A stretch of DNA of 64,000 nucleotides, taken from an uncultured Candidatus Saccharibacteria bacterium (lineage in GTDB: Bacteria; Patescibacteriota; Dojkabacteria; SC72). Location: assembly GCA_964514595.1 (NCBI GenBank), contig CAZEQZ010000001.1, positions 331,847 to 395,846 of the forward strand, given 5' to 3'. How positions within the stretch are numbered: position 1 is the first letter of the stretch; each line of letters begins with the position of its first letter. The notes beneath the pieces are model-generated. The model worked only from the letters and a program-made list of their open reading frames with translations, ran no database searches and was not told the origin of the DNA. Below are positions 236 through 46,554 of the stretch, one piece after another. The position numbers and the translations under genes are program-made.

Positions 236-2416
236 TTATAGTTTCAAAATTTTAAGCCTTAATGAGTTCAATACAACTGATATACTACTAAGGGACATGG
301 CTATACCTGCAAAGGCAGGATTAAGAAGTATCCCCCAAAGGGGATAGAATACTCCCATAGCAAGTGGAATACTTAAGACATTATATATGAATGCCCAAAA
401 GAGATTCTGTTTTATAGTGCTCATAACCTGTTTTGCTAGTTTTATGCTTGTGGGTACTCTGTCTAGGTTTCCTCCCAGAATTGTCACATCCGAAGATTCA
501 ATTGCAATATCTGTCCCTGTGGCCATGGAAATCCCCACATCAGCCAGAGCTAGAGCTGGAGCATCATTTATTCCATCCCCAACCATAGCTACAGTAGTTT
601 CTTTCTTTAAATTATTTATGACGGAAGCTTTCTCATTGGGTAAAACATTGGAGTAGTACTCTTTTATCTCTAATTTTTCTGCGATATCTTTAACAATAAT
701 ATCTGCATCTCCACTCAATAATACGGTCTGTACGCCAAGCTCATGTATTTTCTGTATGACTTGTTTAGCCTCTTCTCTTAATTCATCCTCTATCTCAATT
801 TTTGCAAGAATATTTTTTGAATCAGCTAAAATAATTACAGAGGATTTTGAATCTAATTGTTCTTTTAGATGGAGTTTGTCTTTAATAAATTGTATGCTTC
901 CAATATAGTATGTTTTATTATCAATCTCTCCCATAACTCCTTTCCCATCTATATTTTTAAAGTCTGATACGGCTTTACTCTTGATATTTAATTCCTTTGC
1001 ACGCTCATTAATGGCAAAGGCTAAAGGATGTTGAGATTTAGATTCCAAAGAGTATGCTATTTGGATCACTTCGTTCTCAGCAAGTTTGGAGTCGATGTTA
1101 GTTACTCTCGGTTTCCCATATGTTAGAGTTCCTGTTTTATCAAATACTATGGTTTCTACCGTACTGAGCTTTTGTAATTTCTCCACATCTTTTATTAAAA
1201 TACCATTCCTAGCACCCTTGCCAACACCAACTATTACAGCCGTTGGAGTAGCTAATCCTAGAGCACAGGGACATGCAATAACTAATGTTGCAACAAAAGA
1301 TGATATGCCATTACCGATATTGCCACTTAAGATCCAAACAAGTAAAGAAAGAGATGCTAATACTAGTACAATTGGAACAAACACTCTTGAAATTTTATCT
1401 ACCAACTTCTCTATGGGTGCCCTACTGTTTTGTGCCTGTTCCACTAGCTTGATGATGTTAGCTAACATAGTATCTTTTCCTATTTTTGTAGCCTTTATTT
1501 TTATATATCCTTGCTTATTTAGTGTACCAGCGAAGACAGAATCTCCTAATTTCTTTAAAACAGGAATGGATTCCCCTGTAAGCATAGATTGATCTATTAG
1601 GGCTTTCCCTTCTACTATCTCTCCATCAATAGGTATTTTAGCTCCTGGTTTGACTACTAAGATATCGGATTTTTGAATCTTATCTATCTCTATCTCTATT
1701 TCTTTTTGATCTTTGTATAAAATAGCTGTTTTAGATTGTAATTCAAAAAGCTCTTTTATTGCACTTCCAGTAGATACTCTGGATTTCTCTTCTAAATACT
1801 TCCCCCATATAACAAATCCTTTTATGATGATAATTGCCTCGAAATATGTCGTATTATCAAGGATATTATCCATACCCAGATATCTAAGAAGCAAGATAAT
1901 GATGCTGTATATATATGCAGCAACGGTACCTAAACCTATTAAAGTATTCATATCGGCACCTTTGCCTGTTATGAAGTTGTGTAGCCCTTTAAAGAATGGT
2001 TTCCCTGCTATTATTAATATAATCGTGGTGACAAAGAAAAGTATCTCGTCTAAATAAGGGAGATGTAGTTCATATTGATCTCCTATTATTTTGACTACGA
2101 ATATATCCCATACCATCATTAAGAAAAGAAAAAATGCGAATGGAAGAATAAAGGTTAGCTTTCGTCTTTCTCCTTTTAAATATTTACTATCATCCTCCTT
2201 ATTCTTAGTGATAATTAGATAACCTAAATCTTTTATTTCCCTTTTGAAATCATCGATGTTTACCTTGTTCTCATCGTATTCCAGTTCGATGGTTTTTGTA
2301 GAGTAGTTCACCTCTACATTTTTTACTCCTTCAAGTGAGGCTATTCTGTCCTTTATGTTTATTGCACAGGTTGTACAGTGCATACCCTCTATTTTTTCTG
2401 TCAATTTTTTCATCAA
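236..2416 (-). CDS. copA: Copper-translocating P-type ATPase (P1B-type)
   Basis: N-terminal HMA motif GMHCTTC; transmembrane CPC motif (IACPCALG); phosphorylation motif DKTGTLT; hinge GDGINDAPAL. Length 726 aa. Confidence 0.9.
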   Translation of the reverse strand: MMKKLTEKIEGMHCTTCAINIKDRIASLEGVKNVEVNYSTKTIELEYDENKVNIDDFKREIKDLGYLIITKNKEDDSKYLKGERRKLTFILPFAFFLFLMMVWDIFVVKIIGDQYELHLPYLDEILFFVTTIILIIAGKPFFKGLHNFITGKGADMNTLIGLGTVAAYIYSIIILLLRYLGMDNILDNTTYFEAIIIIKGFVIWGKYLEEKSRVSTGSAIKELFELQSKTAILYKDQKEIEIEIDKIQKSDILVVKPGAKIPIDGEIVEGKALIDQSMLTGESIPVLKKLGDSVFAGTLNKQGYIKIKATKIGKDTMLANIIKLVEQAQNSRAPIEKLVDKISRVFVPIVLVLASLSLLVWILSGNIGNGISSFVATLVIACPCALGLATPTAVIVGVGKGARNGILIKDVEKLQKLSTVETIVFDKTGTLTYGKPRVTNIDSKLAENEVIQIAYSLESKSQHPLAFAINERAKELNIKSKAVSDFKNIDGKGVMGEIDNKTYYIGSIQFIKDKLHLKEQLDSKSSVIILADSKNILAKIEIEDELREEAKQVIQKIHELGVQTVLLSGDADIIVKDIAEKLEIKEYYSNVLPNEKASVINNLKKETTVAMVGDGINDAPALALADVGISMATGTDIAIESSDVTILGGNLDRVPTSIKLAKQVMSTIKQNLFWAFIYNVLSIPLAMGVFYPLWGILLNPAFAGIAMSLSSISVVLNSLRLKILKL

Positions 2417-2420
2417 GGTA

Positions 2421-2828
2421 TTAAATAAATTTAATAATGAAGGTATACATACCCATACTACATGTCCCTAACATATCTTTATTTGGTGATCCCAACTCAA
2501 AAAGAGTTTTTCCATTATTAGGAAGTTCTTCGTATATATTTAAAGAAGGAATTTGAAATGCTCTTTCACAGCCGTATGAATTAATAGATTCAATTTCTAG
2601 GACAGAAGGAGTGTTAGATTTTGCATATATAATTTTTGGAGAATATCCTCCCATCTTTGATATTACCTTTATTTTTTGAATACCACCTTCCATAACCACA
2701 TTCTCAGAAATTCCAAAAGTCTCTGTTTTAGAATTAGATTTTCTTTTCGCATAAGAGAAAGCAAAAATTACAATAAAAATTGCAAAGAGAATGGATAGGG
2801 TTGTAAATAAAGTTTTTGTATTGCTCAT
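2421..2828 (-). CDS. Small N-terminally membrane-anchored protein, possibly metal-binding (Cys/Met-rich C-terminus GTCSMGMY), apparently co-transcribed with copA
   Basis: 135-aa ORF ending 5 nt before the copA start. N-terminal hydrophobic helix. Met-x-Met and Cys residues near the C-terminus. No confident family assignment. Confidence 0.3.
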   Translation of the reverse strand: MSNTKTLFTTLSILFAIFIVIFAFSYAKRKSNSKTETFGISENVVMEGGIQKIKVISKMGGYSPKIIYAKSNTPSVLEIESINSYGCERAFQIPSLNIYEELPNNGKTLFELGSPNKDMLGTCSMGMYTFIIKFI

Positions 2829-2888
2829 ATACCTAAATATAGGTATATATTACTACTTTAAAACGAAATGTCAATATAGATTGACGAA

Positions 2889-6327: not shown

Positions 6328-7410
6328 TTAGTTTGAAATAATATTAACTTCAGGTTCCAATTCTATATCGTATTTATCCTTAACATCTTTTTGCATTGAA
6401 TTAATAAATTCTATAACTTCTTCTCCAACTGCTTTTTTGTTTGTAACTACACAAAGTGCATGTTTCTCAGATACTCCAACATTTCCACACCACTTCCCCT
6501 TCCAACCTAATTCATCCAATAATCTTCCTGCCGGTATTTTAACTAAATCATCATCTTTGAACTGACTTGCATCGCTTAGATCATATCTTAAATCTTCAGA
6601 TGGATAGCATTGAAGGTCAGGGATTTTTTTAAGGAGTTCCTTGTATTTACTATACGTAACTAATGGATTTGTGAAAAAGCTTCCACAAGTACCATACTCA
6701 TCTACGCTAGGAAGTCTCTTTGTCCTTTGTCTAAAAACTGCTTTCATGACATCTTGTATGCTGTATGGCTCTTTTGCAAAGGATTCTAATTCCTCTTTTA
6801 AAGATCCATATCGTCCAGATCTTTCATGATAGCTAAGCTCAAACTCCTTTGTATTCTTTCTAAGTTTAAATGTAGCTGATGTGATTATATATTTATTCCT
6901 CCATTCTTTTTTAAAGATACTACTTCGGTATTTGTAATCACAATCCTTTGGATCGTATTTTTGTAGTTTAAGTGTATCTATCTCTAATGCTTCTATTTCT
7001 TCAAGAGTATCCGTAATGCTTTGTCCATATGCTCCTATATTTTGTGCAACTGCTCCCCCTACTGTTCCAGGTATAAAGACTAAATTTTCAATTCCAGCCC
7101 AATCCTTTTTAACAGCATATCTGACAAGTTTGTCCCAATCTTCTCCTGCAGATACCTTTATGTATATATTTTGATCATCTTCTTTTATTATCTTCTTTCC
7201 TTTAAAATCTATTTTAAGTACTAATCCCTCCCAATCTGTTAACAGAAGTGTATTGCTTCCTCCTCCTAGTATTAATATTTTTTCGTCTTTATATTTCTGT
7301 AATATGGATATACACTGTTTAACACTTTTCACATTAGCAAAGTATTTTGCTTTCACATCAATACAAAAGGTGTTGTATTTTTTAAGAGAGTAGTCCTTCT
7401 TTACATTCAT
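6328..7410 (-). CDS. murB: UDP-N-acetylenolpyruvoylglucosamine reductase
   Basis: FAD-binding PCMH-type domain motifs (ILGGGSNTLL, FIPGTVGGAVAQNIGAYG). MurB-like C-terminal substrate domain. 360 aa. Confidence 0.8.
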   Translation of the reverse strand: MNVKKDYSLKKYNTFCIDVKAKYFANVKSVKQCISILQKYKDEKILILGGGSNTLLLTDWEGLVLKIDFKGKKIIKEDDQNIYIKVSAGEDWDKLVRYAVKKDWAGIENLVFIPGTVGGAVAQNIGAYGQSITDTLEEIEALEIDTLKLQKYDPKDCDYKYRSSIFKKEWRNKYIITSATFKLRKNTKEFELSYHERSGRYGSLKEELESFAKEPYSIQDVMKAVFRQRTKRLPSVDEYGTCGSFFTNPLVTYSKYKELLKKIPDLQCYPSEDLRYDLSDASQFKDDDLVKIPAGRLLDELGWKGKWCGNVGVSEKHALCVVTNKKAVGEEVIEFINSMQKDVKDKYDIELEPEVNIISN

Positions 7411-8888: not shown

Positions 8889-8928
8889 GTCAATGTGAAT
8901 TGACCAGGTGTTTTTAAAAAGGTATAAT
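8889..8928 (+). promoter_or_regulatory. Sigma-70-type promoter (TTGACC-17-TATAAT) overlapped by a perfect inverted repeat GTCAAT-gtga-ATTGAC, an operator-like site
   Basis: -35 at 8900-8905, -10 at 8923-8928, spacing 17 nt. The palindrome at 8889-8904 overlaps the -35. It lies about 115 nt upstream of the first LAETG-protein gene. Confidence 0.4.
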
Positions 8929-9042
8929 TAAATAGGTTATCAAGGACTATGATCTTTCTTGTAGTAGTGGTTGCCGGAAAGAAAGGGAGTCAATGGCAAA
9001 ACCGATTGATAATAATAATTAAATTATTATTATTTAATCGAT

Positions 9043-9615
9043 ATGAAAGAAAAATATTTATTTTTTCTCACTGTTTCATTACTGTTCTTGGGGCTATCCC
9101 TTTTTTCACCTTTAAGGGTGAATGCGCAACCTGCTGACAAGATTAATATTTGTCATGCAACAGCAGCGCATAATAATCCATATATAACAAATAATGTTGA
9201 TAAAAATGCTACTGCAGGCGGACATGATGGTCATACGGGACCTATCTGGTTTGAGGGGATACAGGAAACTTGGGGAGATATTATACCTCCATATGAATTT
9301 GATGGAGGATCATTTTCAGGTTTAAACTGGACTGCTATGGGGGAAGCAATATGGGAGAATGGTTGTAATATTCCAGACCCTGTAGATGAAGAACCGGAGG
9401 AACCGGAAGAGGAGCCAGAAGAACCAATTGAAGAAGAGGAAGATGAAGAAGAGGTAGCGGGAGTAACAGATGATGACGAAGAGGTGCTTGGTACAACCGT
9501 TGTATTAGCAGAAACAGGGGCTTCAGGTAGTATATTAGTATATATTGTACAAACTATATTGATGTTAAGTACATTAGTAAGTGGTACATTGTTTGTAAAG
9601 GAATATACAATCTAG
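9043..9615 (+). CDS. Secreted protein with C-terminal LAETG sorting signal (predicted sortase substrate), paralog A
   Basis: Signal peptide MKEKYLFFLTVSLLFLGLSLFSPLRVNA. Conserved N-terminal module ICHAT...GGHDGH...IPPYEF. Acidic EEPEEPEE linker. C-terminus LAETG, then a hydrophobic helix, then KEYTI. Confidence 0.6.
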   Translation: MKEKYLFFLTVSLLFLGLSLFSPLRVNAQPADKINICHATAAHNNPYITNNVDKNATAGGHDGHTGPIWFEGIQETWGDIIPPYEFDGGSFSGLNWTAMGEAIWENGCNIPDPVDEEPEEPEEEPEEPIEEEEDEEEVAGVTDDDEEVLGTTVVLAETGASGSILVYIVQTILMLSTLVSGTLFVKEYTI

Positions 9616-9647
9616 TAGTAACGGGACTGCTGGATATAGTAACAATT

Positions 9648-9678
9648 GCAGTACTCTTTGGAGTACTGCTTTGTTTAT
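9648..9678 (+). terminator. Rho-independent terminator after LAETG paralog A
   Basis: 9-bp perfect stem GCAGTACTC / GAGTACTGC with a TTTG loop, followed by a T-rich tract. Confidence 0.5.
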
Positions 9679-9698
9679 ACAGTAGTATCTGATAGTAA

Positions 9699-9728
9699 TT
9701 GACTATATTTCCAAAGCAGGAGTATAAT
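9699..9728 (+). promoter_or_regulatory. Sigma-70-type promoter TTGACT-18-TATAAT for LAETG paralog B
   Basis: -35 at 9699-9704, -10 at 9723-9728, about 75 nt upstream of the ATG at 9805. Confidence 0.4.
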
Positions 9729-9804
9729 TGGTAAGTAATCATTAACTAATACTTTAATTTTTAAGTTTGTTAATGAATATATTAAATTTTTACTATTTAA
9801 TAAC

Positions 9805-10779
9805 ATGAAAGGGAAATATATACCTTTTCTGATTTTGCCTTTCTTTCTTTTTCTTTTGTTACTTTCCCCATTTAGTGTAGGTGCAGTGGAGGAAGCTAAT
9901 GGTGAAATAGAAGAAAGCAAGAAGATTCTTTTGTGTCATGCAAAACCGCCAGCAACAGCAAAAAATGGTTTTAACCTTTTAGAGCTACCAGTACAATCCT
10001 TATTTAAGAAAGGTCACGATATACACTATATGGATATAATTCCATATTTTGAGTATACGGTTAAAGAGAAAGTCTTAGCGTATGTTTACAAGGAAAAGAA
10101 AAAGGATGGAGAGTGCCCAAATAATTTTGAGGAATATGGAGACTTATTACTTTGTAGAAGAGAGAAGGAAGTAAAGCAAGAAGTTGAAAAGGAATATCTT
10201 GGAAGTAGATTATGGCAATTAGAGGCAGGTAAAATAGTTTTAGCAAATCGTTGTGAAATTCCTGCTTTATGTGAATATACTATGGACCCTCATGATTACA
10301 CAGAGTGGAGTGAGTGGAATAAACCAAGTGATGTAATCACCGAATGGTTTAGAACCAGGAAAGCTCTGTCATTTGATTTAATACAGAAGCAAATATTTGA
10401 GAAGGAAGAAGTTTGTGAGGAAGATGAAAAATATTTTGCTTGTGATGATACAGATAGTAAAGTCGTAAAGAGTGAATGGAAAGTAGATCCTCTTGATTCT
10501 ACAAAGGAGTATCAGATTACTACCACTTTAGAATTGGACGCTACAGATGAATCAGTAATTTGTAGTTCTGCTGAAGTAAAGGGTGTAAGAGATATTTCTA
10601 CTAAAGTTACCGAAGAGAAGCCGGAAGTGTTGGGTGAACAAACTCAAACTGAGCAGGTAGCTGTAGTATTAGCAGAAACAGGTGCTTCAGACAATATATT
10701 AGTATATATTGTACAAACTGTATTAATGTTAAGTACATTAATAAGTGGTACATTATTTGTAAAAAGATACAGTATCTAA
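9805..10779 (+). CDS. Secreted Cys-rich protein with C-terminal LAETG sorting signal (predicted sortase substrate), paralog B
   Basis: Signal peptide. N-terminal module LCHAK...KGHDIH...IIPYFEY homologous to paralog A. The last roughly 35 aa (VLAETGASDNILVYIVQTVLMLSTLISGTLFVKRYSI) and about 100 bp of DNA are near-identical to the 3' end of paralog A. Confidence 0.6.
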   Translation: MKGKYIPFLILPFFLFLLLLSPFSVGAVEEANGEIEESKKILLCHAKPPATAKNGFNLLELPVQSLFKKGHDIHYMDIIPYFEYTVKEKVLAYVYKEKKKDGECPNNFEEYGDLLLCRREKEVKQEVEKEYLGSRLWQLEAGKIVLANRCEIPALCEYTMDPHDYTEWSEWNKPSDVITEWFRTRKALSFDLIQKQIFEKEEVCEEDEKYFACDDTDSKVVKSEWKVDPLDSTKEYQITTTLELDATDESVICSSAEVKGVRDISTKVTEEKPEVLGEQTQTEQVAVVLAETGASDNILVYIVQTVLMLSTLISGTLFVKRYSI

Positions 10780-10809
10780 TTACAAATATAATATATTAGT
10801 TAGTTATTA

Positions 10810-10844
10810 AGAGCAGTACATGATTTAGGTACTGCTCTTTTGTT
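10810..10844 (+). terminator. Rho-independent terminator after LAETG paralog B
   Basis: 10-bp stem AGAGCAGTAC / GTACTGCTCT followed by TTTTGTT. The stem sequence is related to the paralog A terminator. Confidence 0.5.
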
Positions 10845-10866
10845 ATAAAAAAGATATAATTAGAAG

Positions 10867-11556
10867 ATGGACAAAATAAAATATATGATAATAATGGTTA
10901 TAATCTTTGTTTCTACCCTACTCTTTTCTAGCTTTGTTTTCATACCTACTGTAGCACCATACGAGATTGTTAATGTAGATATATCCCCTATTACATACAA
11001 TGATATGGAGGAAGAAGAAGTAGAGGATATACCTACACTAATGGAGCTATGGGTTATGGAGGAAGGTATGACTAAGATAATGGAGGCAGAGGTATTAAAT
11101 AGGGAATTGCCTCCCAATTGGTTAGATAAGGGGTTGTACTTTAAATATACATACATTGGCCAGTACAACGAATATACTCAGGAAGTATTAGATGATCTGT
11201 TGTTAGATGAGTATAAATGGCAGAAACAGTTAGATGAGCAGGGTAACGTTGTTATGGGAGGTATAGTTCTTTCTAAGGATGGTACATATCAACTTCATAC
11301 ACATAATACGTTTACACAAGGTAATAGATTTTATTTATTGGGAGATTTGTTAGATAGATATCATAATGAGGAAGGTGTAGTCGGAACTAGAATTAGGTTT
11401 GGTGGTGTAATATTGGAAAGTGTTTGGGAAAGAGATATACGTATTCTTGAAGGAGGATCCGTTCCTTATGCAGACCTAATCATATCAACCTGTTTAGAAA
11501 GGTGGGGAGATAGAAGATTGATAAGTGGTTGGAATATAGTATGGGAGAATATATAA
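10867..11556 (+). CDS. Sortase-like transpeptidase (divergent), N-terminally membrane-anchored
   Basis: N-terminal TM helix. Candidate catalytic His in LHTHNTF followed by F..LL..GD (FYLLGDLL), as in sortases. Candidate catalytic Cys in LIISTC (TLxTC-like) about 65 residues after the His, with Arg residues 7-8 positions later. It lies immediately downstream of the two LAETG proteins. TATAAT sits 7 nt before the ATG, consistent with a leaderless transcript. Confidence 0.45.
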   Translation: MDKIKYMIIMVIIFVSTLLFSSFVFIPTVAPYEIVNVDISPITYNDMEEEEVEDIPTLMELWVMEEGMTKIMEAEVLNRELPPNWLDKGLYFKYTYIGQYNEYTQEVLDDLLLDEYKWQKQLDEQGNVVMGGIVLSKDGTYQLHTHNTFTQGNRFYLLGDLLDRYHNEEGVVGTRIRFGGVILESVWERDIRILEGGSVPYADLIISTCLERWGDRRLISGWNIVWENI

Positions 11557-11563
11557 TCCTAAA

Positions 11564-12331
11564 ATGGTTGTAAGTAAGAAAAAAATATCACCTTTTGTAA
11601 AATTCCTTAAGAAAAGAGATATCCAGTATGTAGGGTTTGATATAGACAATACCCTCATACCTACAAATCTATATTATAGTGAGAGAATATCTTCCGTTAT
11701 AAAGCAAATATATAAATATCTTAATATCTCCGACGATTTAGAATCTGTATCCCAGGAATATTCTAATATATTCTTAAATAGATATATTAATAGAGGGAAA
11801 TTACCTATGAATATATCTGATGAGGTTCTGGGGGCACTACAGGAGTACTTGGGATATATGAATAAGGATATAGAGAGTATTGTTAAAGAAAATTTGAGTG
11901 ATTTCTATATGAACTCCACTGATCCATATGATAGTGCATATGAAATCCTTAAAATATTGAAAAAGAATAGTATTGAATTTGTATTATGTTCTCATGCGGA
12001 GGATGATTGGACTAATGTTAAAGTTAATCTGCTCGGGAAAGAGCTGAATATAGATATCCCCTACCTTGCCGTTGGTCTATCAAATATTAAGAATGCTAAT
12101 AGCTGGAAAGAAGCATTTAAGTTAATAGATGGTGATATCTCTAAATCTTTAATAATTGGAGATAGTTTGGATGCAGATATTCTCTCAGGCATAGAGTCAG
12201 GATGCAAGAATGTAATATGGATCGATTTGTATGGGAAAGGATTGTCAGATGATGATGTAATATCAGATGGTGTAAAGTTGATTATTGTGAAAGATCTTTC
12301 TGAAATTGTGGATTTTAATAATATTCTTTAG
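11564..12331 (+). CDS. HAD-superfamily hydrolase
   Basis: Motif I FDIDNTL. Motif IV IIGDSLDADI. 255 aa. Confidence 0.55.
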   Translation: MVVSKKKISPFVKFLKKRDIQYVGFDIDNTLIPTNLYYSERISSVIKQIYKYLNISDDLESVSQEYSNIFLNRYINRGKLPMNISDEVLGALQEYLGYMNKDIESIVKENLSDFYMNSTDPYDSAYEILKILKKNSIEFVLCSHAEDDWTNVKVNLLGKELNIDIPYLAVGLSNIKNANSWKEAFKLIDGDISKSLIIGDSLDADILSGIESGCKNVIWIDLYGKGLSDDDVISDGVKLIIVKDLSEIVDFNNIL

Positions 12332-14311: not shown

Positions 14312-17300
14312 TTAGGATTTCCTTTTCTTAAGAATTAGTAGGATTCCAACTGTGAGTATTAATCCTGTACCTATGTATATGTATAGAAGATATTCTTTTT
14401 TAATCTTATTCATCTCTATGTTCATTTCTATGGTTGTTTTTTCCACCTCTATCTCCTCACTTTCATATGTTTCGTATCCATCTAGTTCAACCTTTATTTT
14501 ATAAGTACCAGGTTCTACTAAGAATTGGTATTCTCCATGTGTATTGGTATATTGTGGATTATTTGCTATACCATATATATTCCAGTCATCATCTAATTTG
14601 GCATATAGTGTTACTTGTGCATTACTGAGTCTTAACTCATTCTCATCAATTTTTTCGTACACGAAACCGTATGGGTCTACTAATACCTCCAACTTCATTC
14701 TCACGGATGTATTATCATCAAACATTGCTAATATATTCAAATCATATGTCCCTAAAGAGTTGAATATATCCATCTTGGTTTCGTAGAAGTAGGATGTACT
14801 ATCTAGGGCTAGTTTTGTGATTTCTCCATTACTCTCTATGTATACTCCTTTAATAGAAGAGTTGGGGTTCAAGGAGGATATTGTGTTGATTGGGATTCCA
14901 ACATCTAGCGTGTTATTGGCGTATATTGAGAGCTTTGTTTTTTCATTTACAGAAATATTTTTCTCCCCCAAAGTTATTGTTACTTTATCATTATCCTTAA
15001 TTGTTTTTATTGGAGTAGCAGTATCTTTGATTGTATCTAGAACTGCTTTCTTTTCTTCCGATGTTAATTTATTAGATTGCTCTTTAGGGATTTCCATAGG
15101 AGGCTCTTCTGTCACAGGAGGTGGAGTTGGAGATTGTGTAGTTGACGGTGTGGTTGGAGGTTGAACAGTAGAGGCTTTGGTATAACAAGTTGTGCTCTCG
15201 GAGTATGCTGTTTCAATAGCATCTCCGTTGCGAGCTTTAACTCTAAATGTATAGGCAGTAGATGGTGTTAACGATTTCACCGTGTACGAATTGTTAGTAG
15301 TGAATTCTGTAAATGTCCCCCACTGAACTGTATCTGAAAGTACACCTAATGTCTTGTCTAAATATTTATTACTACTAGACTCGTTAATTAATATATTCGT
15401 ATTATCGGGATTAGAATTTTTCTCTACAGAAAGAGTTATAGTAGTAGATGTGGTGGTCAGACAGGATATCGTAGGAGTATTCGCCAGGGTATATCTAGAT
15501 AAGGTAGAAGAACTACTTGTCTCTATACTTTCCGCATTTCTAGCCTTCACAGAATAGCTATACTGTGTGTTTGGAATTAAATTCAAAGAGGAATCTGTAC
15601 TATTTTGAACCCATTCATTGATTCCAGTATTACAATTGGAAGAAGAGCATGAGAAAAGGAGGCCTGATGATACTTGTTCTAGATTATTAACATTAGTCGC
15701 ATACAAAGTTATAGAAGTTGAGGTAAGGGCTGTAGCTGTTAAGTTAGGGATATCACTTAATGTATATTGGGAGATCGTGGAAGAGTATCCACTCTCTATA
15801 CCTTCAGCATTACGTGCTTTGGCCTTGTAAGAATACTGTGTATTTGGTTGCAGAGAAGAGGATGTTGCCGTACTATTTTGTACCCATGTATTTATACCCG
15901 TATTACATCCACTATTTATACAATTAAACAGAATTCCTGATGTGCCTGAGGATAAATTGGTTGCATTTGTAACATTTAATCCAATTGAATTTTTGTTAAC
16001 AGTTCCGAAGGTAAGTACTGGTATGTCAGCAAAGGTGTATTTACTAGTTTCCTCAGAGTAATTACTATCCCCTAGGATATTGTAGGAAGAAATTTTTCTT
16101 CGATATTGGGTGTTAGGTAATAGATTGATTTCTTCAATATAGCTCAAATCAGAAGTTTCTTCTGTTTCTATCAAGGAATTATCATAATTATATAGTTTAA
16201 AACCTAATTCATTATCTGAATTGTCTGTAAAATTCCATCTTATACTTGAAGTTGAGATAGTTTCAGGAGTCTCAATTGTAGGGGCAAGTGGAGCTTGATC
16301 ATATGATAATGAAATATCGTCTAAAACTGGTGTTGCTACGCCTTCGTCATTATCAAATTCTATTTTATAATAGAAGGAATCTGTTTCCCAATCTAGGGAT
16401 GAAAGATCTATAGAGTTGCTATTTCCTTGTACAAGAGTATCAGATCCATCTTCTACCCCTCCTGAGTTATACCACGTTGTTGCATCTGTACTAAATTGTG
16501 CAGTTGCGGAAGTCCCAGAGGGTAAAGAGGATATGGAGTAATCAAATGAAATCATTTTCATATTCTCATCTCCAGGAAGAATGTCTAAAGATTGTATAGA
16601 AGTTTGATTTTGGTATTGAGGAAGTTGAGTGGTATGTGCCAAAGGAGTTGTTGTCCCAGATATCGAGGACACATAATCAATATGAATTCTTCCATCACCA
16701 CCGTTTCCTCCACTGTATGCACCTGTACCTCCAATACCTCCATTTGCAGTTACTTTGTCATTTCCTAAGGTTATACTGTTTGTATATAATTTAACAGAGC
16801 CTCCTGCACCACCACCACCACCACCGCTATACGCTCCTGCATTACTTCCATCTGCTCCATTAGCGTTCACAGAGCCATTTGCTCCAACAACTACATTTTG
16901 TCCATATATGTATACAATTCCTCCACCTGCTCCGCCTGCTCCTGTAGAGGTTGGTGATCCACTTCCTCCAGAACCACCGCCAGCTCCAAGAAAAAGAAGA
17001 GAAAGATCTGCTACTCCATAATTACCACCACCACCACCTCCTCCTGCATACGCTTCTCCCGATACTCCTCCACAATACGCATTTCCTCCAGTACCACTAT
17101 TATCTCCACCATCTCCACCATTTTGATATCCACTTCCTCCTCCTCCTCCTGTTCCATATCCACCACCACCACCACCACCACCTTTGGTTTTCGTTAACAA
17201 ATTGCCCAAAGAAGTTCCACCGCCACCACCCGCACCTCCAACTCCACCAGTACCACCAATACCACAATCAACAGGGCCATTGTCACTGTATACATAGAAG

Positions 17301-18652
17301 ATGAGATCGTGAGTATTGTCCGCTTGCCAATTAGTACCATCATGAGACACCCTGTTTCCCCCATGCGTGGGGCTTGTTGAATCAGCCCCTATCAATACCT
17401 TATTACTAGAATTTCCACCTGTATACTCTAAAACCACAACATAGTTAGTTCCGTTAGTAAGGGTAATTCTCTCATCACCAGAAAAGTTGAAATTTATTAA
17501 CGCAATAGTGGTTGTTAATGTTGATACATCGAAGGCGTCTGATGTGGCAAGCAAAGTGTCCGGAACAGAAGATGTCCCAAAAGTTCCACTATGGGAGTAT
17601 ATCTTTGCATATCCATTTCCCGTTGGAGAACCACTCTTTTTCATATAGAGTTTAAGACTATCGATAGCTCCACCATTACCTGTAAAGGACTGACCCTGTT
17701 TTCCGTTTGCTCCATATATATCAAAATTTGTACTAACATAATTGGTATTAGCGTAATTGTCTACATTTGCAATCTTTAAATACATTCCACCACCACCTCC
17801 ACCACCGGCATATGTCTCGTTCTCTCCATTTTCGTTTCCGTAAGTGAGTTTCCCGGCATTTTGAGCCCTACCTTTTGCATAATCTGCACCTCTTTCTCCA
17901 CTGCTTGTACAAGATAGGGAGCAGGCAGTACCTCCAGGAAAGCCCTTTGTCGCTCCATTTATAGAACCATTAATCGCAACTGTACCTGTGGCTTTAAAAA
18001 AAATGACACCGGCATTAGCAAGTAACGATTTAGTGTCAGAAGTAATAGCAAATCCCTCGTTTACCGTTACATCTGTATATTGAGGAACTCTAATAATGGC
18101 TATATTATTTGAAGAGTAGTATGTGTTTTGTAAGTTGGTTTCGAAAGTCAATGTATCCCCAGTTATATTAGAAATAGTAACTGTCTCATACTGTCCTGTA
18201 TACTGTGCGAAAGAGGATAAACCATCTTGAGTTATTATTAATACCTCATCTCCCACAGCTAATCCGTTTAATGTAGATGTACTTAAACGCATTTGGTTTG
18301 TACCAGCATTTGCGGTATAAGTACTATACTTCTGAAACCGTACAGCATCTCCGTATGCCCTTCCCACACATGACTGTGTGTTGATATTCATATTACTTGA
18401 TACAGTACAGGCTCCATCAGCACCTGTTCCAAAGGTGTATGATCTTGTCGATGCAGAAATTTGACCTCCTGAAAGTATATAGTTTGATGAATTTACAGCG
18501 TCGATATATGTATCATCTATAAAAGCGTCATTAACAGTATATGCATTTACATCTTTATAGTAATTATCTTTTAAAAAAAGAAAAAACAAAGAACAGAGTA
18601 TTGATGCTATCAGTATAATTGTCAAAATTCTACGACCTCTGGTGCGGGGCAT
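14312..18652 (-). CDS. Giant cell-surface protein with N-terminal signal anchor, Gly-rich (poly-G/GGxGG) region, tandem FN3-like repeats, CarboxypepD_reg-like domain and C-terminal TM anchor
   Basis: 1446 aa. N-terminus MPRTRGRRILTIILIASILCSLFFLF. Long GGGGGG/GGxGGxG tracts. At least four FN3-like units ending PNTQYSYKAKARN / PNTQYSYSVKARN / PSTAYTFRVKARN. Motif YGIANNPQYTNTHGEYQFLVEPGTYKIKVELDGYE near the C-terminus. C-terminal TM helix plus a KKRKS tail. Confidence 0.7.
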   Translation of the reverse strand: MPRTRGRRILTIILIASILCSLFFLFLKDNYYKDVNAYTVNDAFIDDTYIDAVNSSNYILSGGQISASTRSYTFGTGADGACTVSSNMNINTQSCVGRAYGDAVRFQKYSTYTANAGTNQMRLSTSTLNGLAVGDEVLIITQDGLSSFAQYTGQYETVTISNITGDTLTFETNLQNTYYSSNNIAIIRVPQYTDVTVNEGFAITSDTKSLLANAGVIFFKATGTVAINGSINGATKGFPGGTACSLSCTSSGERGADYAKGRAQNAGKLTYGNENGENETYAGGGGGGGMYLKIANVDNYANTNYVSTNFDIYGANGKQGQSFTGNGGAIDSLKLYMKKSGSPTGNGYAKIYSHSGTFGTSSVPDTLLATSDAFDVSTLTTTIALINFNFSGDERITLTNGTNYVVVLEYTGGNSSNKVLIGADSTSPTHGGNRVSHDGTNWQADNTHDLIFYVYSDNGPVDCGIGGTGGVGGAGGGGGTSLGNLLTKTKGGGGGGGGYGTGGGGGSGYQNGGDGGDNSGTGGNAYCGGVSGEAYAGGGGGGGNYGVADLSLLFLGAGGGSGGSGSPTSTGAGGAGGGIVYIYGQNVVVGANGSVNANGADGSNAGAYSGGGGGGAGGSVKLYTNSITLGNDKVTANGGIGGTGAYSGGNGGDGRIHIDYVSSISGTTTPLAHTTQLPQYQNQTSIQSLDILPGDENMKMISFDYSISSLPSGTSATAQFSTDATTWYNSGGVEDGSDTLVQGNSNSIDLSSLDWETDSFYYKIEFDNDEGVATPVLDDISLSYDQAPLAPTIETPETISTSSIRWNFTDNSDNELGFKLYNYDNSLIETEETSDLSYIEEINLLPNTQYRRKISSYNILGDSNYSEETSKYTFADIPVLTFGTVNKNSIGLNVTNATNLSSGTSGILFNCINSGCNTGINTWVQNSTATSSSLQPNTQYSYKAKARNAEGIESGYSSTISQYTLSDIPNLTATALTSTSITLYATNVNNLEQVSSGLLFSCSSSNCNTGINEWVQNSTDSSLNLIPNTQYSYSVKARNAESIETSSSSTLSRYTLANTPTISCLTTTSTTITLSVEKNSNPDNTNILINESSSNKYLDKTLGVLSDTVQWGTFTEFTTNNSYTVKSLTPSTAYTFRVKARNGDAIETAYSESTTCYTKASTVQPPTTPSTTQSPTPPPVTEEPPMEIPKEQSNKLTSEEKKAVLDTIKDTATPIKTIKDNDKVTITLGEKNISVNEKTKLSIYANNTLDVGIPINTISSLNPNSSIKGVYIESNGEITKLALDSTSYFYETKMDIFNSLGTYDLNILAMFDDNTSVRMKLEVLVDPYGFVYEKIDENELRLSNAQVTLYAKLDDDWNIYGIANNPQYTNTHGEYQFLVEPGTYKIKVELDGYETYESEEIEVEKTTIEMNIEMNKIKKEYLLYIYIGTGLILTVGILLILKKRKS
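15290..16250 (-). repeat. Intragenic tandem repeats (about 270-285 bp units encoding FN3-like domains) within the giant surface protein gene
   Basis: DNA-level similarity between blocks near 15520-15580 and 15790-15840 (both encode PNTQYSY..KARNAE). Repeated protein units of about 90-95 aa. Confidence 0.5.
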
Positions 18653-18749
18653 AATGAAAATAGTACCACTATTACATTATTATGGCAATAACGTTATTTT
18701 TCTTGTACAAGCATATAGATATTTATGCCTTTTCTTAGTATATTATTCT

Positions 18750-20135
18750 ATGCACTCATTAAAAGATAGAAAAGTTCTGATATTTGGTCTTGGTTTAAAT
18801 GATGGTGGATTGGGTATGGCAGAGTATTTCCTAAAGCATGGCGCATTAGTTACCATAACTGATTTAAGAACAAAAGAACAACTATCTCCAATATTAGGGA
18901 AGTTAGAAAAGTATAAGGAGCAAATAACGCTACACTTAGGAGAGCATAGAGAAGAAGATTTTCTAAATAATGATATTATTGTTAGAAATCCTGCTGTTAA
19001 ACCAAATAGTGAATATCTACAAATAGCCCAAAAAGCGGGGAAACAGATTGAAATGGAGATGAGTCTTTTTCACAGACTCTCACCCTGCCCTATCATAGGA
19101 ATAACTGGGACAAGGGGGAAGTCCACAACAACTTCTTTAATATATGAATTTCTGAAGAAAAAATACGGAGGAAAAATATTTTTGGGAGGAAACATAGGAA
19201 GAAGTGCTATAAGAGAGGTGGATACTCTAACCAAGGATAATATTGCTGTTTTGGAAATATCTAGCTTTCATCTAGATGGTATGGGAGCAAATAAAGTATC
19301 ACCACATATTGCTGTTGTTACAAATATGTACATAGATCATCAAGATTGGCACGGTAGTATGGAAGAGTATATAAATGCAAAGAAGAACATATATAGATAT
19401 CAAGGGAATGATGATTATTTGGTTGTAAATATCGACAATGATATTACGAAAGAATTTGTGAAGGATTGTAAGTCCAATATTATCACCTACTCACTTAAAG
19501 ATACCCCTGCAAACTACTATATGGATGATAATATGCAGATATATTTAAATGGTGTACCTATACTAAAGCTTCAGTCGAAAGATGTAGCTTTAAAAGGAGA
19601 ACATAACATGTATAACATACTTTCTGCCATAGCTACAGCGAAAATATATGACATTAGTAATGAAGATATAGAGGAAGTCTTAAAAGATTTCAAAGGTGTA
19701 CCTGGAAGGCAAGAGCTTGTTAGAGAGCTTAATGGTGTTAAATTCTATAACGATACTACAGCAACCTCTGTAGAGGCTGTTAAAGCTATGTTTGAGAGAT
19801 TTTCAAAAGATTTCAGTGGGAAGATTATTATGATAGCAGGTGGCGTGGATAAAGGACTTGATTATTCATTGCTTGTAGACAATATGAAAGAACATCTAAA
19901 AGGTTTGGTACTTCTTGAAGGTACAGCCTCTGAGAGGATAAATGACTTAATGGGTGATTTTGATAATACGCATAAGTATTTTAATAATATGGAAAGTGCA
20001 GTTAAGAAGGCATATGAGTTAGCAAAAGATGGAGACATGGTAATACTGTGTCCAAGTGCTTCAAGTTTTAATATGTTCTTGAATGAATTTGATAGAGGTG
20101 ATCAGTATGTAAAGTATGTTAATTTGTTAAAATAA
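18750..20135 (+). CDS. murD: UDP-N-acetylmuramoylalanine--D-glutamate ligase
   Basis: N-terminal KVLIFGLGLNDGGLGMA Rossmann-like domain. P-loop GITGTRGKSTTT. LEISSFHLD and DHQDWHG motifs. Start placed at the internal ATG at 18750 (MHSLKDRK) because the longer ORF overlaps the divergent giant gene. Confidence 0.8.
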   Translation: MHSLKDRKVLIFGLGLNDGGLGMAEYFLKHGALVTITDLRTKEQLSPILGKLEKYKEQITLHLGEHREEDFLNNDIIVRNPAVKPNSEYLQIAQKAGKQIEMEMSLFHRLSPCPIIGITGTRGKSTTTSLIYEFLKKKYGGKIFLGGNIGRSAIREVDTLTKDNIAVLEISSFHLDGMGANKVSPHIAVVTNMYIDHQDWHGSMEEYINAKKNIYRYQGNDDYLVVNIDNDITKEFVKDCKSNIITYSLKDTPANYYMDDNMQIYLNGVPILKLQSKDVALKGEHNMYNILSAIATAKIYDISNEDIEEVLKDFKGVPGRQELVRELNGVKFYNDTTATSVEAVKAMFERFSKDFSGKIIMIAGGVDKGLDYSLLVDNMKEHLKGLVLLEGTASERINDLMGDFDNTHKYFNNMESAVKKAYELAKDGDMVILCPSASSFNMFLNEFDRGDQYVKYVNLLK

Positions 20136-20139
20136 TTAT

Positions 20140-21480
20140 ATGATAGATATACAAGGATTGAAGAAGGTTCATTTTATAGGCATCACCTCCGCTTTTTGTA
20201 GCTTCTGTGCTAACTATCTCATAGAGAAAGGGGTTAAAGTCACTGCATCGGAAGTTAATCAACAATCAGAGGATGCAAAAAAATGGATAGAGAGAGGTGT
20301 CTTGTATGAGGGTGGTCATAGTGGAAAATATATAACAGATGATTTGGATTTAGTTGTTCTTCCCACAGGTCCTATTCCAGGTAATCCAGAGTGTGTAGTT
20401 GCAGAAAGAAAGAATATTCCAACTATTCCAGTAGCTAAATTAACGGGAATAATTAGTAAAGAGTTTAAGACAATTGCCATAGCAGGTACACATGGGAAAA
20501 CAACCACATGTGCTTTAACTGTATGGATGTTATATAAGGCGTTAGGCTCTCTCCCAAACTTTGTTATAGGAGATCACATATTAGATATAGATAGATCATG
20601 GAACTACAATCCCGAGAATGAGTATTTTGTAGTAGAGGCATGCGAATACAAGAAACAATTTCTAGATAGAGCCCCTACTCCATATATTTCTGTCATAACA
20701 AATATTGAATTAGATCATACAGACTTCTTTAAATCGCAAGAGCAGTATAATGATGCTTTTGTGGAGTTTGTATCAAATACCACAAAAGCTTTGGTAGTCG
20801 ATACAAAGGGGAATAATATAGAAAATATTTTAAGAAAGATTAAGGAATACAACATAGAGATAGTTGATGTTGCTAATCTAAAGGATGATTGTTCTAATGT
20901 CACAGCGGGTCTCAGAGGTGATTATAACAAACAGAACGTACTAAGGGCATGTGGTGTAGCAGAATACTTAAAGTTAAATGTTGATATAGAGGATTTCCCA
21001 GGAGTAGCTTCAAGATTTGAATTTAAGGGTTCTACCATTAATGGTATGTCAGTATATCTTGACTATGCACACAATCCCACAAAGGTGAAGGCATGCTTGA
21101 GAGCTACGAGAGAGAGCTTCCCAGATAAAAAAATAATATTTGTGTGGCAACCGCATAGTTTTGAAAGGACATACTCTTTCAAAGATCAATTTGCAAAGAG
21201 TCTTGACGATACAGATATTTTATATATCCCCAATATTTTCGCACCCAACCGAGAGGAGAGAAGATATAAAGAATTAATAACTGAGGAAGAATTTGTAGAT
21301 TATCTTAAAGAGAAGAACCCTTCTAAAGAAATACTTTATACAAAGGATTTCGAAAATACCGCATCGCTACTCTTGGATAAAAAGTATAACTCTGATTATA
21401 TCTGTGTATTAGCCAGTGCAGGAGATTTGTATAAAATACTTCCCAGCTTGAAATTAGAAGATAATAAAGATGAAATATAG
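20140..21480 (+). CDS. Mur ligase of MurC/Mpl type (UDP-MurNAc--L-alanine ligase or murein-peptide ligase)
   Basis: N-terminal VHFIGI... domain. P-loop AIAGTHGKTTTC. EACEYKKQFL (EADESD-like) and DYAHNP motifs characteristic of MurC/Mpl. Confidence 0.7.
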   Translation: MIDIQGLKKVHFIGITSAFCSFCANYLIEKGVKVTASEVNQQSEDAKKWIERGVLYEGGHSGKYITDDLDLVVLPTGPIPGNPECVVAERKNIPTIPVAKLTGIISKEFKTIAIAGTHGKTTTCALTVWMLYKALGSLPNFVIGDHILDIDRSWNYNPENEYFVVEACEYKKQFLDRAPTPYISVITNIELDHTDFFKSQEQYNDAFVEFVSNTTKALVVDTKGNNIENILRKIKEYNIEIVDVANLKDDCSNVTAGLRGDYNKQNVLRACGVAEYLKLNVDIEDFPGVASRFEFKGSTINGMSVYLDYAHNPTKVKACLRATRESFPDKKIIFVWQPHSFERTYSFKDQFAKSLDDTDILYIPNIFAPNREERRYKELITEEEFVDYLKEKNPSKEILYTKDFENTASLLLDKKYNSDYICVLASAGDLYKILPSLKLEDNKDEI

Positions 21481-24412: not shown

Positions 24413-24919
24413 TTATATCTTCCTACTATCATAGGCCCAATGTAATACAGCTTGTCTCTGTTTCTTTCTACAATCCAAATCCAGTGGTATACAGTTTTTC
24501 TGTATCCCAGCTATATGTCTCTTTATAGCCCTCCATCTTTTAATCTGTCTTTCATCCTCTGGTGGTATTCTTCTTCCCATATAATATCTACAATACCATT
24601 GAAACCATCCTCTTGGATCTTCGTGATGTATCCAACCTTTCTGTCTCCAATACGATAGCGGCATACTAGCGTCTACCTTGAAAAAGTTAAGGGATATGTC
24701 TTTCTTTCGTGGAGATAGTTTAGCGTTAGTAAACCAATCCTTAGGGAATTCTTTAATACAATCAGTCATATACTTCCCACCAAATACTCCTAGTTCCAAC
24801 ATCTGTTTAGGAGTAAGTTCTGGTTCAAATTCAGGATCAAAATTTTTGCCAACAAGCTCTATGAGGTAATATACATAATTGCTTTGCATCTTATCATTTA
24901 CAATAACCTTTTTGTTCAT
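24413..24919 (-). CDS. Conserved hypothetical protein (Trp/Arg-rich), translationally coupled to the LD-carboxypeptidase gene
   Basis: Start chosen at the internal ATG that overlaps the upstream stop by 1 nt (TAATG). Distinctive conserved-looking block GWIHHEDPRGWFQWYCRYYMGRR. Family not identified. Confidence 0.4.
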   Translation of the reverse strand: MNKKVIVNDKMQSNYVYYLIELVGKNFDPEFEPELTPKQMLELGVFGGKYMTDCIKEFPKDWFTNAKLSPRKKDISLNFFKVDASMPLSYWRQKGWIHHEDPRGWFQWYCRYYMGRRIPPEDERQIKRWRAIKRHIAGIQKNCIPLDLDCRKKQRQAVLHWAYDSRKI

Positions 24920-31577: not shown

Positions 31578-31578
31578 A

Positions 31579-46490: not shown

Positions 46491-46554
46491 GTTAAATAAC
46501 CCTTCGTATATATTACAGGATAGATTTTTGAGGTCAAGTGATATATATTAGAAT

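Follow-up and report, generated by a model that had tools for sequence, protein, structure and literature searches.

A probable surface-display cassette of Dojkabacteria with a class II c-di-GMP riboswitch, LAETG-tailed proteins and a sortase-fold protein

Introduction

SrtB and IsdC of S. aureus form a dedicated sortase-substrate pair, with an NPQTN sorting motif and iron/Fur regulation. The locus described here, from an ultra-small Candidatus Dojkabacteria bacterium (CPR, Patescibacteria) with a tiny genome, resembles that pair in that a specialised sortase-like protein is encoded beside its one or few putative substrates and the motif is non-canonical, but the motif is LAxTG rather than NPQTN, a riboswitch takes the place of iron/Fur control, and the enzyme belongs to another sequence family. 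Also among the closest known systems are the class E sortases of Actinobacteria with their LAxTG substrates (S. coelicolor SrtE1, PDB ID: 5cuw; NF041527, 'SCO1860 family LAETG-anchored protein').

Two further systems connect surface proteins with c-di-GMP. According to PMC11477304, which cites Peltier et al. 2015, the C. difficile sortase substrates CD2831 and CD3246 are controlled by c-di-GMP-II riboswitches. The Dojkabacteria locus is similar in that the 5' leader of its first gene, for a putatively sortase-anchored protein, holds a c-di-GMP riboswitch of class II, and an ON switch is expected. It differs in its host, a CPR bacterium, in having unrelated cargo domains, and in that the cassette includes its own, highly divergent sortase-like gene; no PPEP-1-like release protease was seen near the Dojkabacteria cassette. 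In B. thuringiensis the Bc2 c-di-GMP riboswitch controls the collagen adhesion protein Cap (PMC4933901), an adhesin; here too a c-di-GMP riboswitch occupies the 5' UTR of a surface protein gene, but the cargo differs, and Cap has no adjacent dedicated sortase. Among CPR genomes, more than half were found by a protein-family study to contain a sortase family (PMC6744442), and a pilus described in a preprint (doi 10.64898/2026.03.03.709456) was set aside as an unrelated donor-strand system distinct from the Dojkabacteria cassette. A literature search found no paper combining c-di-GMP, riboswitch and Patescibacteria.

Results

Organization of the locus

The features of the locus are collected in Table 1. 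The three open reading frames, two signal peptides, two C-terminal tails, DNA duplication and two terminator hairpins that an earlier note had described from the letters are all present in the window (the whole 64-kb stretch of DNA that was analysed). A further ORF of 62 aa at 8949-9137 was rejected as spurious; it overlaps the riboswitch and the start of gene A. Nothing ties the HAD-family hydrolase gene that follows gene C to the sortase/substrate system. Elsewhere in the window Pfam scans show peptidoglycan genes, namely those for three Mur ligases, MurB, an LD-carboxypeptidase, Alr and Ddl.

Table 1. Positions of the features of the locus, numbered from the first nucleotide of the window.
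Feature	Position	Strand	Description
Palindrome GTCAATgtgaATTGAC	8889-8904	.	Perfect, GTCAAT-N4-ATTGAC; overlaps -35 box of gene A
Promoter-like site, gene A	8900-8928	+	TTGACC, 17-nt spacer, TATAAT; 11/12 matches
c-di-GMP-II riboswitch aptamer (RF01786)	8933-9016	+	P1, P2, P3 and pseudoknot
Expression-platform hairpin	9003-9040	+	Predicted; -11.5 kcal/mol, z -4.2
Gene A	9043-9615	+	190 aa; ORF reading
Gene A, N-terminal parts	nt 9127-9387 (module)	+	Signal peptide, residues 1-28; Cys/His module, residues ~29-115
Gene A, C-terminal parts	nt 9505-9519 (LAETG)	+	Acidic Glu/Pro linker, LAETG, membrane segment, KEYTI tail
Intrinsic terminator, gene A	9648-9669	+	-18 kcal/mol, z -6.2
Promoter-like site, gene B	9699-9728	+	TTGACT, 18-nt spacer, TATAAT; 11/12 matches
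Gene B	9805-10779	+	324 aa; signal peptide, divergent Cys/His module with insertion
Gene B, C-terminal parts	nt 10669-10683 (LAETG)	+	Second Cys/Trp-rich domain (TEWSEW inside), LAETG, membrane segment, KRYSI tail
Terminator-like hairpin after gene B	10809-10839	+	-15.8 kcal/mol, z -4.4
Gene C	10867-11556	+	229 aa; N-terminally membrane-anchored sortase-fold protein
Candidate catalytic residues, gene C	nt 11296-11304; 11491-11493; 11512-11517	+	His144/His146; Cys209; Arg216/Arg217
HAD-family hydrolase gene	11564-12331	+	8 nt past gene C; conserved neighbour in closer clade

Each paralog had been assigned a promoter of its own, and the two sites listed are the best in the region, although the total number of promoter-like matches does not exceed that in shuffled sequence. 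The CTGATAGTAATTGACTAT box of the gene B promoter is kept at the substrate genes of other Dojkabacteria, and no riboswitch follows this promoter. The proposal of related terminators behind the two substrate genes is borne out by the fact that both hairpins fold and have GCAGTAC/GTACTGC arms in common; that of gene B has an 11-bp stem and a 9-nt loop and is followed by UUUUGUU.

c-di-GMP-II riboswitch ahead of gene A

The aptamer, which the earlier note does not mention, begins ~5 nt past the -10 box of gene A and matches RF01786 over the full length of the model at 40.9 bits (E 1e-7, in a search of 341 nt), with the P1/P2/P3 plus pseudoknot architecture and the conserved core nucleotides of that family, from which the Dojkabacteria copies differ in being AU-rich and in having one extra pair in the pseudoknot. 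The window copy falls below the Rfam gathering score of 53.5 bits, so that automatic annotation at this threshold does not report it. Riboswitches at the same position in orthologous loci score 64.4 bits (L016) and 53.8 bits (L022), both at or above the gathering score, and 49.5 bits (L003). In the alignment 92.3% of cells are paired, compared with 30-51% when partners are slid; compensatory changes occur in 10 riboswitch pairs, uphold P1, P2, P3 and the pseudoknot, and yield a covariation score that none of 500 shuffles reached. Pairing in the pseudoknot is 100%, with one U-A to C-G swap. Each locus has exactly one copy, always ahead of the first substrate gene.

Towards the start codon lies the predicted expression-platform hairpin. 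It takes the 3' strand of P1 as its 5' arm, and its 3' arm stops 2 nt short of the AUG. An equivalent hairpin is found in L003, and the alignment contains a G-C to A-U swap between clades in this element. No Shine-Dalgarno sequence is evident before gene A, so that the element covered by the hairpin is assumed. From the folding, the hairpin is predicted to mask the translation start region when ligand is absent, and its location beside the AUG suggests an ON switch, a direction that we infer from this geometry. Given a riboswitch ahead of gene A, surface display is probably switched by c-di-GMP here.

It is unlikely that the leader is a c-di-GMP-II-type fold for some other ligand, or a decaying copy, with gene A outside c-di-GMP control. 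Such a reading would fit the sub-threshold score of the window copy, the overlapping matches of lower score that the ortholog scans gave to further families of its Rfam clan, and the degenerate copy of L001, which has no pseudoknot partner. It would also fit the outcome of the searches for c-di-GMP proteins, as motif search and Pfam scans found no GGDEF, EAL or PilZ genes in the window or related loci, and regular expressions found no GGDEF or HD-GYP motifs in ~300 kb of Dojkabacteria DNA. However, the L016 and L022 orthologs pass the gathering score, the window copy keeps every helix, the pseudoknot and the GGAG..A-UGG..AACCG core, and the platform hairpin is retained.

Sorting tails of A and B

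The products of genes A and B begin with signal peptides (ending ...RVNA before Q in A and ...SVGA before V in B) and end with VVLAETGAS, ~22 hydrophobic residues and K(E/R)Y(T/S)I, a VVLAETG-type tail that no other ORF of the window has. The duplication at the ends of the two genes, earlier put at roughly 100 bp, measures 116 nt (9499-9614 versus 10663-10778) with 87% identity, and the tails compared as protein are 67% identical (E 9e-19). Both proteins have the anatomy of an LPXTG-type sorting signal, that is, signal peptide, pentapeptide, hydrophobic segment and positive tail, with a pentapeptide, LAETG, that has Ala at position 2. Neither matches Pfam Gram_pos_anchor or TIGR01167 at E up to 1; the sole curated anchor model to match is NF041527 (SCO1860_LAETG), weakly and to the tail, at 16.8 bits against a cutoff of 200. 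In the tail alignment of homologs, V-V-L-A-x-T-G-A ahead of the membrane segment is invariant or almost so, and the membrane segment itself is unusually well conserved. Judged by sequence, the view that A and B are built like sortase substrates is supported.

Gene C encodes a sortase-fold protein

The 10867-11556 product had been called sortase-like from a His...LLGD...ISTC...R pattern. The pattern is present, and among 34 homologs no change is found at H144, H146, C209 or R217, and conservation at R216 is 90% or more. Of the two checks proposed with that assignment, a search against sortase-family HMMs gave no match, whereas structure prediction gave a sortase fold. The predicted model (pLDDT 82, pTM 0.74) is an eight-stranded sortase beta-barrel, and the fold was called by two structure-comparison methods; with Foldseek all of the top 50 matches are sortases (best E 2.8e-4), and the SrtB structures 1ng5 and 4lfd are among the matches. 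In the model the His residues close strand 140-145, Cys closes strand 204-209 and the Arg residues open strand 216-224, which are the beta4, beta7 and beta8 positions of sortases. Alignment by hhalign to a set of 11 annotated sortases places H146 at SrtA His120, C209 at Cys184 and R216-x-x-I-x-G at the sortase R-x-x-V-x-G, with a probability of only 5%. A transmembrane helix spans residues 3-29 of the model, and all homologs have a hydrophobic N-terminus, so that the protein combines a membrane anchor with a predicted extracellular catalytic domain, at about residues 55-229.

By sequence the family stands apart. Searches of gene C against Pfam and NCBIfam gave no sortase match at E up to 1, and searches of PDB sequences found no sortase, whether the query was the sequence alone (phmmer) or a profile of the 34 homologs. 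When 1.84 billion representative proteins were searched with a profile, nothing linked the family to canonical sortases; three full-length clusters were returned, along with fragments and, in long proteins, a few matches in several stretches. An HMM built from the 11 annotated sortases seemed to enrich C orthologs among weak matches, a result that was discarded because only the N-terminal membrane anchor aligned.

Co-occurrence of enzyme and tail

The gene C family is confined to Dojkabacteria. At 19 of 22 sortase-gene loci a tail-bearing gene lies directly upstream on the same strand, the exceptions being L004, with a 90-aa remnant, and L010 and L017, at contig ends. Conversely, every tail-bearing gene that was found independently is followed by a sortase-like gene, and a metagenome scan with the tail peptide gave three confirmed loci with a sortase-like gene where length sufficed, a number too small to gauge how often tails occur apart from it. 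Enzymes at least 55% identical to C accompany x-TG-A tails (9 loci) and those ~45% identical accompany x-TA-(A)G tails (10 loci); the tail motif thus follows the enzyme clade, LAxTG(A) in one and LAxTA(A)G in the other, and the beta6-beta7 loop of the gene C family has a clade-specific indel.

These observations bear on a reading in which the tails are plain uncleaved membrane anchors and C, despite its sortase fold, acts in some other way, such as a releasing protease or a non-catalytic partner. The missing sortase HMM match would agree with it, as would the strong conservation of the tail membrane segment, which is expected for intramembrane protein-protein contact. The near-invariant motif before that segment, its shift along with the enzyme clade, the invariant Cys, His and Arg of C and the strict gene adjacency all argue in the opposite direction, and we consider this reading quite unlikely. 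Sorting by C is preferred, with the caution that its catalysis, the cleavage site and the acceptor are inferred.

The Cys/His head module and the palindrome

The N-terminal modules of A and B align weakly in pairwise comparison (27% identity, E 0.013), and family alignments show an invariant Cys, His, His, His, Cys common to both. The earlier description of the module as outside any recognised family holds, as no match was found in Pfam, NCBIfam or PDB; the family comprises 1,219 proteins, with a confidently predicted fold that has no solved structural relative. In A a disulfide is predicted between Cys37 and Cys108, and metal binding by the module, as the earlier note suggested, is speculation. 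The earlier note had also made its reading depend on whether homologs of the module lack sorting signals, and most of them end in an LAxTG tail, an LPxTG tail or some other anchor made of a membrane segment plus basic residues.

The perfect palindrome reported at the first promoter is present, and a second perfect GTCAAT-N4-ATTGAC copy lies at 2870-2885. About 42 bp separate this copy from the downstream ATG of a gene for a cupredoxin-like protein, and a gene for an HMA-domain P-type ATPase comes next. Two occurrences in 64 kb compare with a chance expectation of 0.28, and two matches were reached in 2 of 100 shuffles. This pairing, together with the invariant Cys, three His and Cys of the module, could point to a copper regulon, in which the palindrome would be bound by a repressor common to gene A and the cupredoxin/CopA operon, and the module would hold copper on the cell surface. 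Orthologous promoters of other Dojkabacteria do not have the palindrome, though, and the -35 consensus TTGAC is part of each copy, which makes such palindromes likelier at promoters by chance; moreover, three long contigs show no copper genes near module homologs, and no candidate regulator was identified. A copper regulon is therefore very doubtful. The palindrome is species-specific, and its absence from orthologs rules it out as a conserved operator; the conserved regulatory element is the c-di-GMP-II riboswitch of the 5' leader.

The suggestion of a pilus-like system found no backing. It is highly improbable that C is a pilus-assembling (class C-like) sortase that joins A and B in a heteromeric fibre rather than attaching them to the wall. 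Class C systems usually have several pilins per locus, with Ig-like domains and a pilin-motif Lys, whereas most orthologous loci have a single tail-bearing gene beside the sortase gene, and no pilin-like features were seen in A and B (no pilin-type family in Pfam scans, no pilin motif on reading of the sequences).

Discussion

The locus is probably a cassette, conserved among Dojkabacteria, through which display of a surface protein is regulated. In the sequence of events that we propose, transcription from the 8900-8928 promoter would give a leader that folds into the c-di-GMP-II riboswitch. In the absence of ligand the 9003-9040 hairpin would pair the 3' strand of P1 with AUG-proximal bases and block translation of gene A, and binding of c-di-GMP would stabilise P1 and the pseudoknot, free the start region and turn A on. 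The Sec pathway would export A as well as its paralog B, which would be expressed from its own promoter with no riboswitch. The C-terminal segments would then hold both proteins in the membrane while C, using Cys209, His144/146 and Arg216/217, would cut LAETG between Thr and Gly, leaving A to end at Thr158 and B at Thr292, and pass A and B to a peptidoglycan precursor. An acidic stalk would then present the Cys/His head (in B together with its extra domain) on the outside of the cell, where the head may well serve in binding or attachment. A bolder account, which we put forward tentatively and with more doubt than confidence, is that C represents an unrecognised class of Dojkabacteria sortase, co-evolved with a single surface protein of swappable cargo, and that c-di-GMP-II control of the whole cassette is older than the separation of its two clades.

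Surveys of CPR sortases depend on recognisable sequence families. Since the gene C family is unseen by Pfam and NCBIfam models, surveys that use these models would miss it and could mis-score Dojkabacteria. The adjacency of one enzyme and one substrate, in LAxTG and LAxTA(A)G variants, provides a natural system for the study of sortase specificity, and the Cys/His module, as an uncharacterised domain family of considerable size, is a reasonable target for structural work. For a lineage whose attachment biology is largely obscure, the cassette ties surface display to a second messenger in a concrete way that can be tested.

Organization of the locus

Genes A and B encode adjacent secreted proteins, and gene C, which follows them, the sortase-like enzyme; the G+C content of the window is 34%, and homologs with organism names place its source in Candidatus Dojkabacteria, within the CPR/Patescibacteria. 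As the earlier note had described, A and B each carry a signal peptide and a C-terminal sorting signal. The latter consists of VVLAETGAS followed by hydrophobic residues and then a basic tail, a combination found in no other ORF of the 64-kb window. Over their final 116 nt the two genes share 87% identity, strong hairpins with common GCAGTAC/GTACTGC arms lie 3' of both, and of all promoter-like sites in the region the two best lie upstream of A and of B.

Coordinates of features in the window and, where a locus (L) is named, in related loci from other genomes
Feature	Position	Strand	Remarks
HMA-domain P-type ATPase gene	236-2416	-	next after cupredoxin-like gene
Cupredoxin-like gene	2421-2828	-	
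Second palindrome	2870-2885		in 60-bp gap, ~42 bp 5' of cupredoxin-like ATG
Peptidoglycan genes	6328-7410, 18642-23056, 24919-25908, 30459-32574		
Palindrome at gene A promoter	8889-8904		
c-di-GMP-II aptamer (RF01786)	8933-9016		full-length Rfam match, 40.9 bits, E 1e-7 (341-nt search)
62-aa ORF	8949-9137		
Start-site hairpin	9003-9040		-11.5 kcal/mol, z -4.2
Gene A	9043-9615	+	190 aa ORF
Promoter box	9690-9728; L003, L009, L013, L027, L041		upstream of substrate genes
Gene B	9805-10779	+	324 aa ORF
Second domain of B	10270-10560		residues ~155-250
Gene C	10867-11556	+	229 aa ORF
HAD-family hydrolase gene	11564-12331; L003 6696-7448; L027 4904-5671; L041 6641-7456		
Predicted surface protein	14312-18652	-	1,446 aa
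Putative GlmS gene	44544-46331		595-aa ORF
glmS ribozyme (RF00234)	46359-46496	-	50.8 bits, above gathering score
Divergent leader	L001/L002 4608-4678		

A predicted c-di-GMP-II riboswitch precedes gene A

Comparison of the regions upstream of substrate genes revealed a conserved leader of ~110 nt, which in the window matches the c-di-GMP-II aptamer; this predicted riboswitch before gene A is the regulator that the earlier note missed. The window aptamer scores below the gathering score of 53.5, and a standard whole-window scan is therefore silent on it; orthologous leaders score 64.4 (L016), 53.8 (L022) and 49.5 (L003) bits against the same model. When helices P1, P2 and P3 and the pseudoknot were examined in nine distinct sequences, 92.3% of cells were paired (versus 30-51% with slid partners), compensatory changes occurred in ten pairs, and the covariation score was reached in 0 of 500 shuffles. 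The pseudoknot is 100% paired, GGUUGCC/GGCAA..CC being replaced by GGUCGCC/GGCGA..CC. A covariance model built from the nine leaders detects a single copy in each locus, in every case ahead of the first substrate gene; the rest of the 290 kb, including the region in front of gene B, has none.

The 62-aa ORF, which an ORF caller could report, shares sequence with the riboswitch and with the beginning of gene A, and is almost certainly not a gene. In the most divergent locus (L001/L002), where the substrate tail is also unusual (VVHAPTAGED), the leader retains P1 and the 3' riboswitch core without the pseudoknot-forming P3 loop, and may represent an aptamer in decay or one put to another use.

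The aptamer begins ~5 nt past the -10 box, a spacing that supports the predicted promoter of gene A. The start-site hairpin stops 2 nt short of the AUG; L003 has an equivalent design, and L019 and L021 carry a G-C pair in place of an A-U pair. Because the 5' arm of this hairpin is the 3' strand of P1, ligand-stabilized P1 should free the start region, from which we infer that the riboswitch would act as an ON switch.

Gene B and four loci (L041, L013, L008, L007) have a different leader that lacks the riboswitch and lies behind a conserved CTGATAGTAATTGACTAT promoter box. A promoter box of the form CTGATAGTA(A/T)TTGACTAT ... TATAAT is kept across species, in some cases with the riboswitch leader and in others with a short one that contains TCTTTAATTTTTAAG. 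The kind of leader does not go with the kind of cargo (the part flanked by signal peptide and tail), suggesting that the cassette has a mosaic history.

The palindrome at the gene A promoter

The palindrome reported at the gene A promoter is present, and a second perfect GTCAAT-N4-ATTGAC lies upstream of the cupredoxin-like and HMA-domain P-type ATPase genes; a further HMA-like ORF extends off the left window end. The pair is suggestive of a metal-responsive operator shared by gene A and the cupredoxin-like gene. However, the palindrome is missing from orthologous promoters, so that its proposed role as a conserved operator of gene A does not hold; moreover, the -35 consensus is part of each copy, and homologs of the Cys/His module elsewhere, on three long contigs, have no copper neighbours.

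Gene C has a predicted sortase fold outside the described families

No sortase match was obtained for C in Pfam, NCBIfam or PDB sequence searches, the last also with a 34-sequence profile. A word-indexed search returned 70 homologs, every one at least 40% identical and lacking any Pfam domain, with the named ones from Dojkabacteria. When 1.84 billion representative proteins were searched exhaustively with a profile, only three full-length clusters and fragments turned up; the family is thus narrow and isolated in sequence space. Weak matches of an HMM of canonical sortases to C orthologs run through the N-terminal membrane anchor only and were discounted. By these searches C falls outside every sequence-defined sortase family.

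Within the C family H144, H146, C209 and R217 are invariant and R216 is conserved at 90% or more. Sortases carry His after beta4, Cys at the end of beta7 and Arg in beta8 (H120, C184 and R197 in S. aureus SrtA). In the structure model of C the His residues lie at a strand end, Cys209 is the last residue of strand 204-209 and Arg216/217 open strand 216-224, so that in the model the candidate residues occupy the sortase beta4, beta7 and beta8 positions. Alignment by hhalign with ten annotated plasmid sortases and S. aureus SrtA (the latter sequence, as used, 72.7% identical to an S. epidermidis protein annotated as a class A sortase) gave a low probability of 5% (pairwise E 0.0074); in that low-probability register H146 falls on His120 and C209 on Cys184, and R216-R-L-I-S-G lines up with R-x-x-V-x-G of sortases. 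The sortase-like assignment therefore stands as to the modelled fold and the conserved His, Cys and Arg at expected positions, but is matched by no sortase family HMM; C is predicted to combine a sortase fold with candidate catalytic residues like those of sortases.

Enzyme and substrate tail are paired across Dojkabacteria

A scan of species-representative genomes gave 21 C-type loci, all consistent with Dojkabacteria MAGs, some of them under generic labels. A related tail-ending gene lies immediately upstream on the same strand in 19 of the 22 sortase-gene loci analysed, with a signal peptide wherever the N-terminus falls inside the contig; the remaining three have a 90-aa remnant (L004) or no upstream sequence (L010, L017). 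In the reverse search, from tail-bearing proteins, a sortase-like gene came next in every case with downstream sequence. Enzymes at least 55% identical to C are paired with V-V-L-A-(E/D/K)-T-G-A tails (9 loci) and those ~45% identical with V-V-L-A-(S/A/K)-T-A-(A)-G tails (10 loci), with zero exceptions. The clades also differ by an indel in the beta6-beta7 loop, which in known sortases controls motif choice. Cargo varies from locus to locus: the window, L005, L008, L013 and L041 have the Cys/His module, and further loci carry other Cys-rich domains. The picture that emerges is of an enzyme probably dedicated to a single substrate slot, a slot that has been duplicated in the window genome.

Because the window encodes MurB, three consecutive Mur ligases, alanine racemase, D-Ala-D-Ala ligase and LD-carboxypeptidase, peptidoglycan is a plausible acceptor for C, and the organism very likely builds a wall. 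In the closer clade a HAD-family hydrolase gene begins ~8-16 nt after the sortase-like gene; in L001 it is on the other strand, away from the sortase-like gene.

The Cys/His module family

A profile of the N-terminal module common to A and B matched 1,219 proteins at E up to 1e-3, the few named ones from Chloroflexota and other uncultured bacteria. No Pfam domain covers the module among the matches listed or in scans of eight members, in agreement with the view that it belongs to no described family. Cys9, His10, His33, His36, Pro54, Gly65 and Cys80 (module numbering) are invariant, and NPY and WGDIIP nearly so; B has a divergent version of the module, with an insertion.

A typical member has ~200 aa, with a signal peptide, the module, a Pro/Thr-rich or acidic linker and a C-terminal anchor. 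Most homologs have a C-terminal anchor of one kind or another: of the 112 top matches, 66 have a hydrophobic C-terminal segment and basic tail, and 41 of the 112 have a hydrophobic segment and fit a loose LPxTG-like pattern. About twenty of the latter carry a clear LAxTG or LPxTG, whereas in many of the rest the matching residues (LALAG, LAMAG) are within the membrane segment.

One subgroup (P0084, P0089, P0090, P0126, P0138, P0150, P0155, P0161, P0164, P0165, P0215) ends exactly at ...V-T-V-x-P-(R/S/T)-(F/L/T)-T-G, a conserved C-terminus for which we know of no explanation; another large subgroup ends in GWR..LLALAG..LLLTPA.AVVRKDD. The second domain of B has a TEWSEW / SEWKVDP pattern and conserved Cys, common to other Dojkabacteria cargo proteins and seen also in P0072 and P0073; these features are reminiscent of thrombospondin-type WSxW repeats. 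Module protein P0142 has a recorded PF19028 domain, which we take to be the spondin-type TSP1 repeat.

Other features of the window

The glmS ribozyme lies just 5' of an ORF that, from its N-terminus (MCGIFGY...), looks like GlmS. The predicted surface protein contains long Gly-rich stretches and fibronectin type III and CarboxypepD_reg-like domains, and ends in a plain membrane segment and KKRKS tail with no LAxTG motif.

Discussion

In C. difficile the sortase substrates CD2831 and CD3246 are under c-di-GMP-II riboswitches (PMC11477304), and in B. thuringiensis a collagen adhesin is under a c-di-GMP riboswitch (PMC4933901). Our literature search found no paper tying such riboswitches to Patescibacteria. 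Diguanylate cyclase genes are reported from MAGs of ultra-small prokaryotes, Patescibacteria and DPANN (PMC9938205); a GGDEF/HD-GYP motif search of ~300 kb of Dojkabacteria DNA found none.

The core of the earlier interpretation is upheld. The best description of the locus is a surface-display cassette under the control of a c-di-GMP-II riboswitch, whose lineage-specific enzyme, in the structure model, is recognisable as a sortase by fold only. Read from sequence and models, it would work similarly to known sortase systems and to the c-di-GMP-regulated adhesins of Firmicutes; what is new here is the enzyme family, the motif variant of one clade, the host lineage and the cargo domain.
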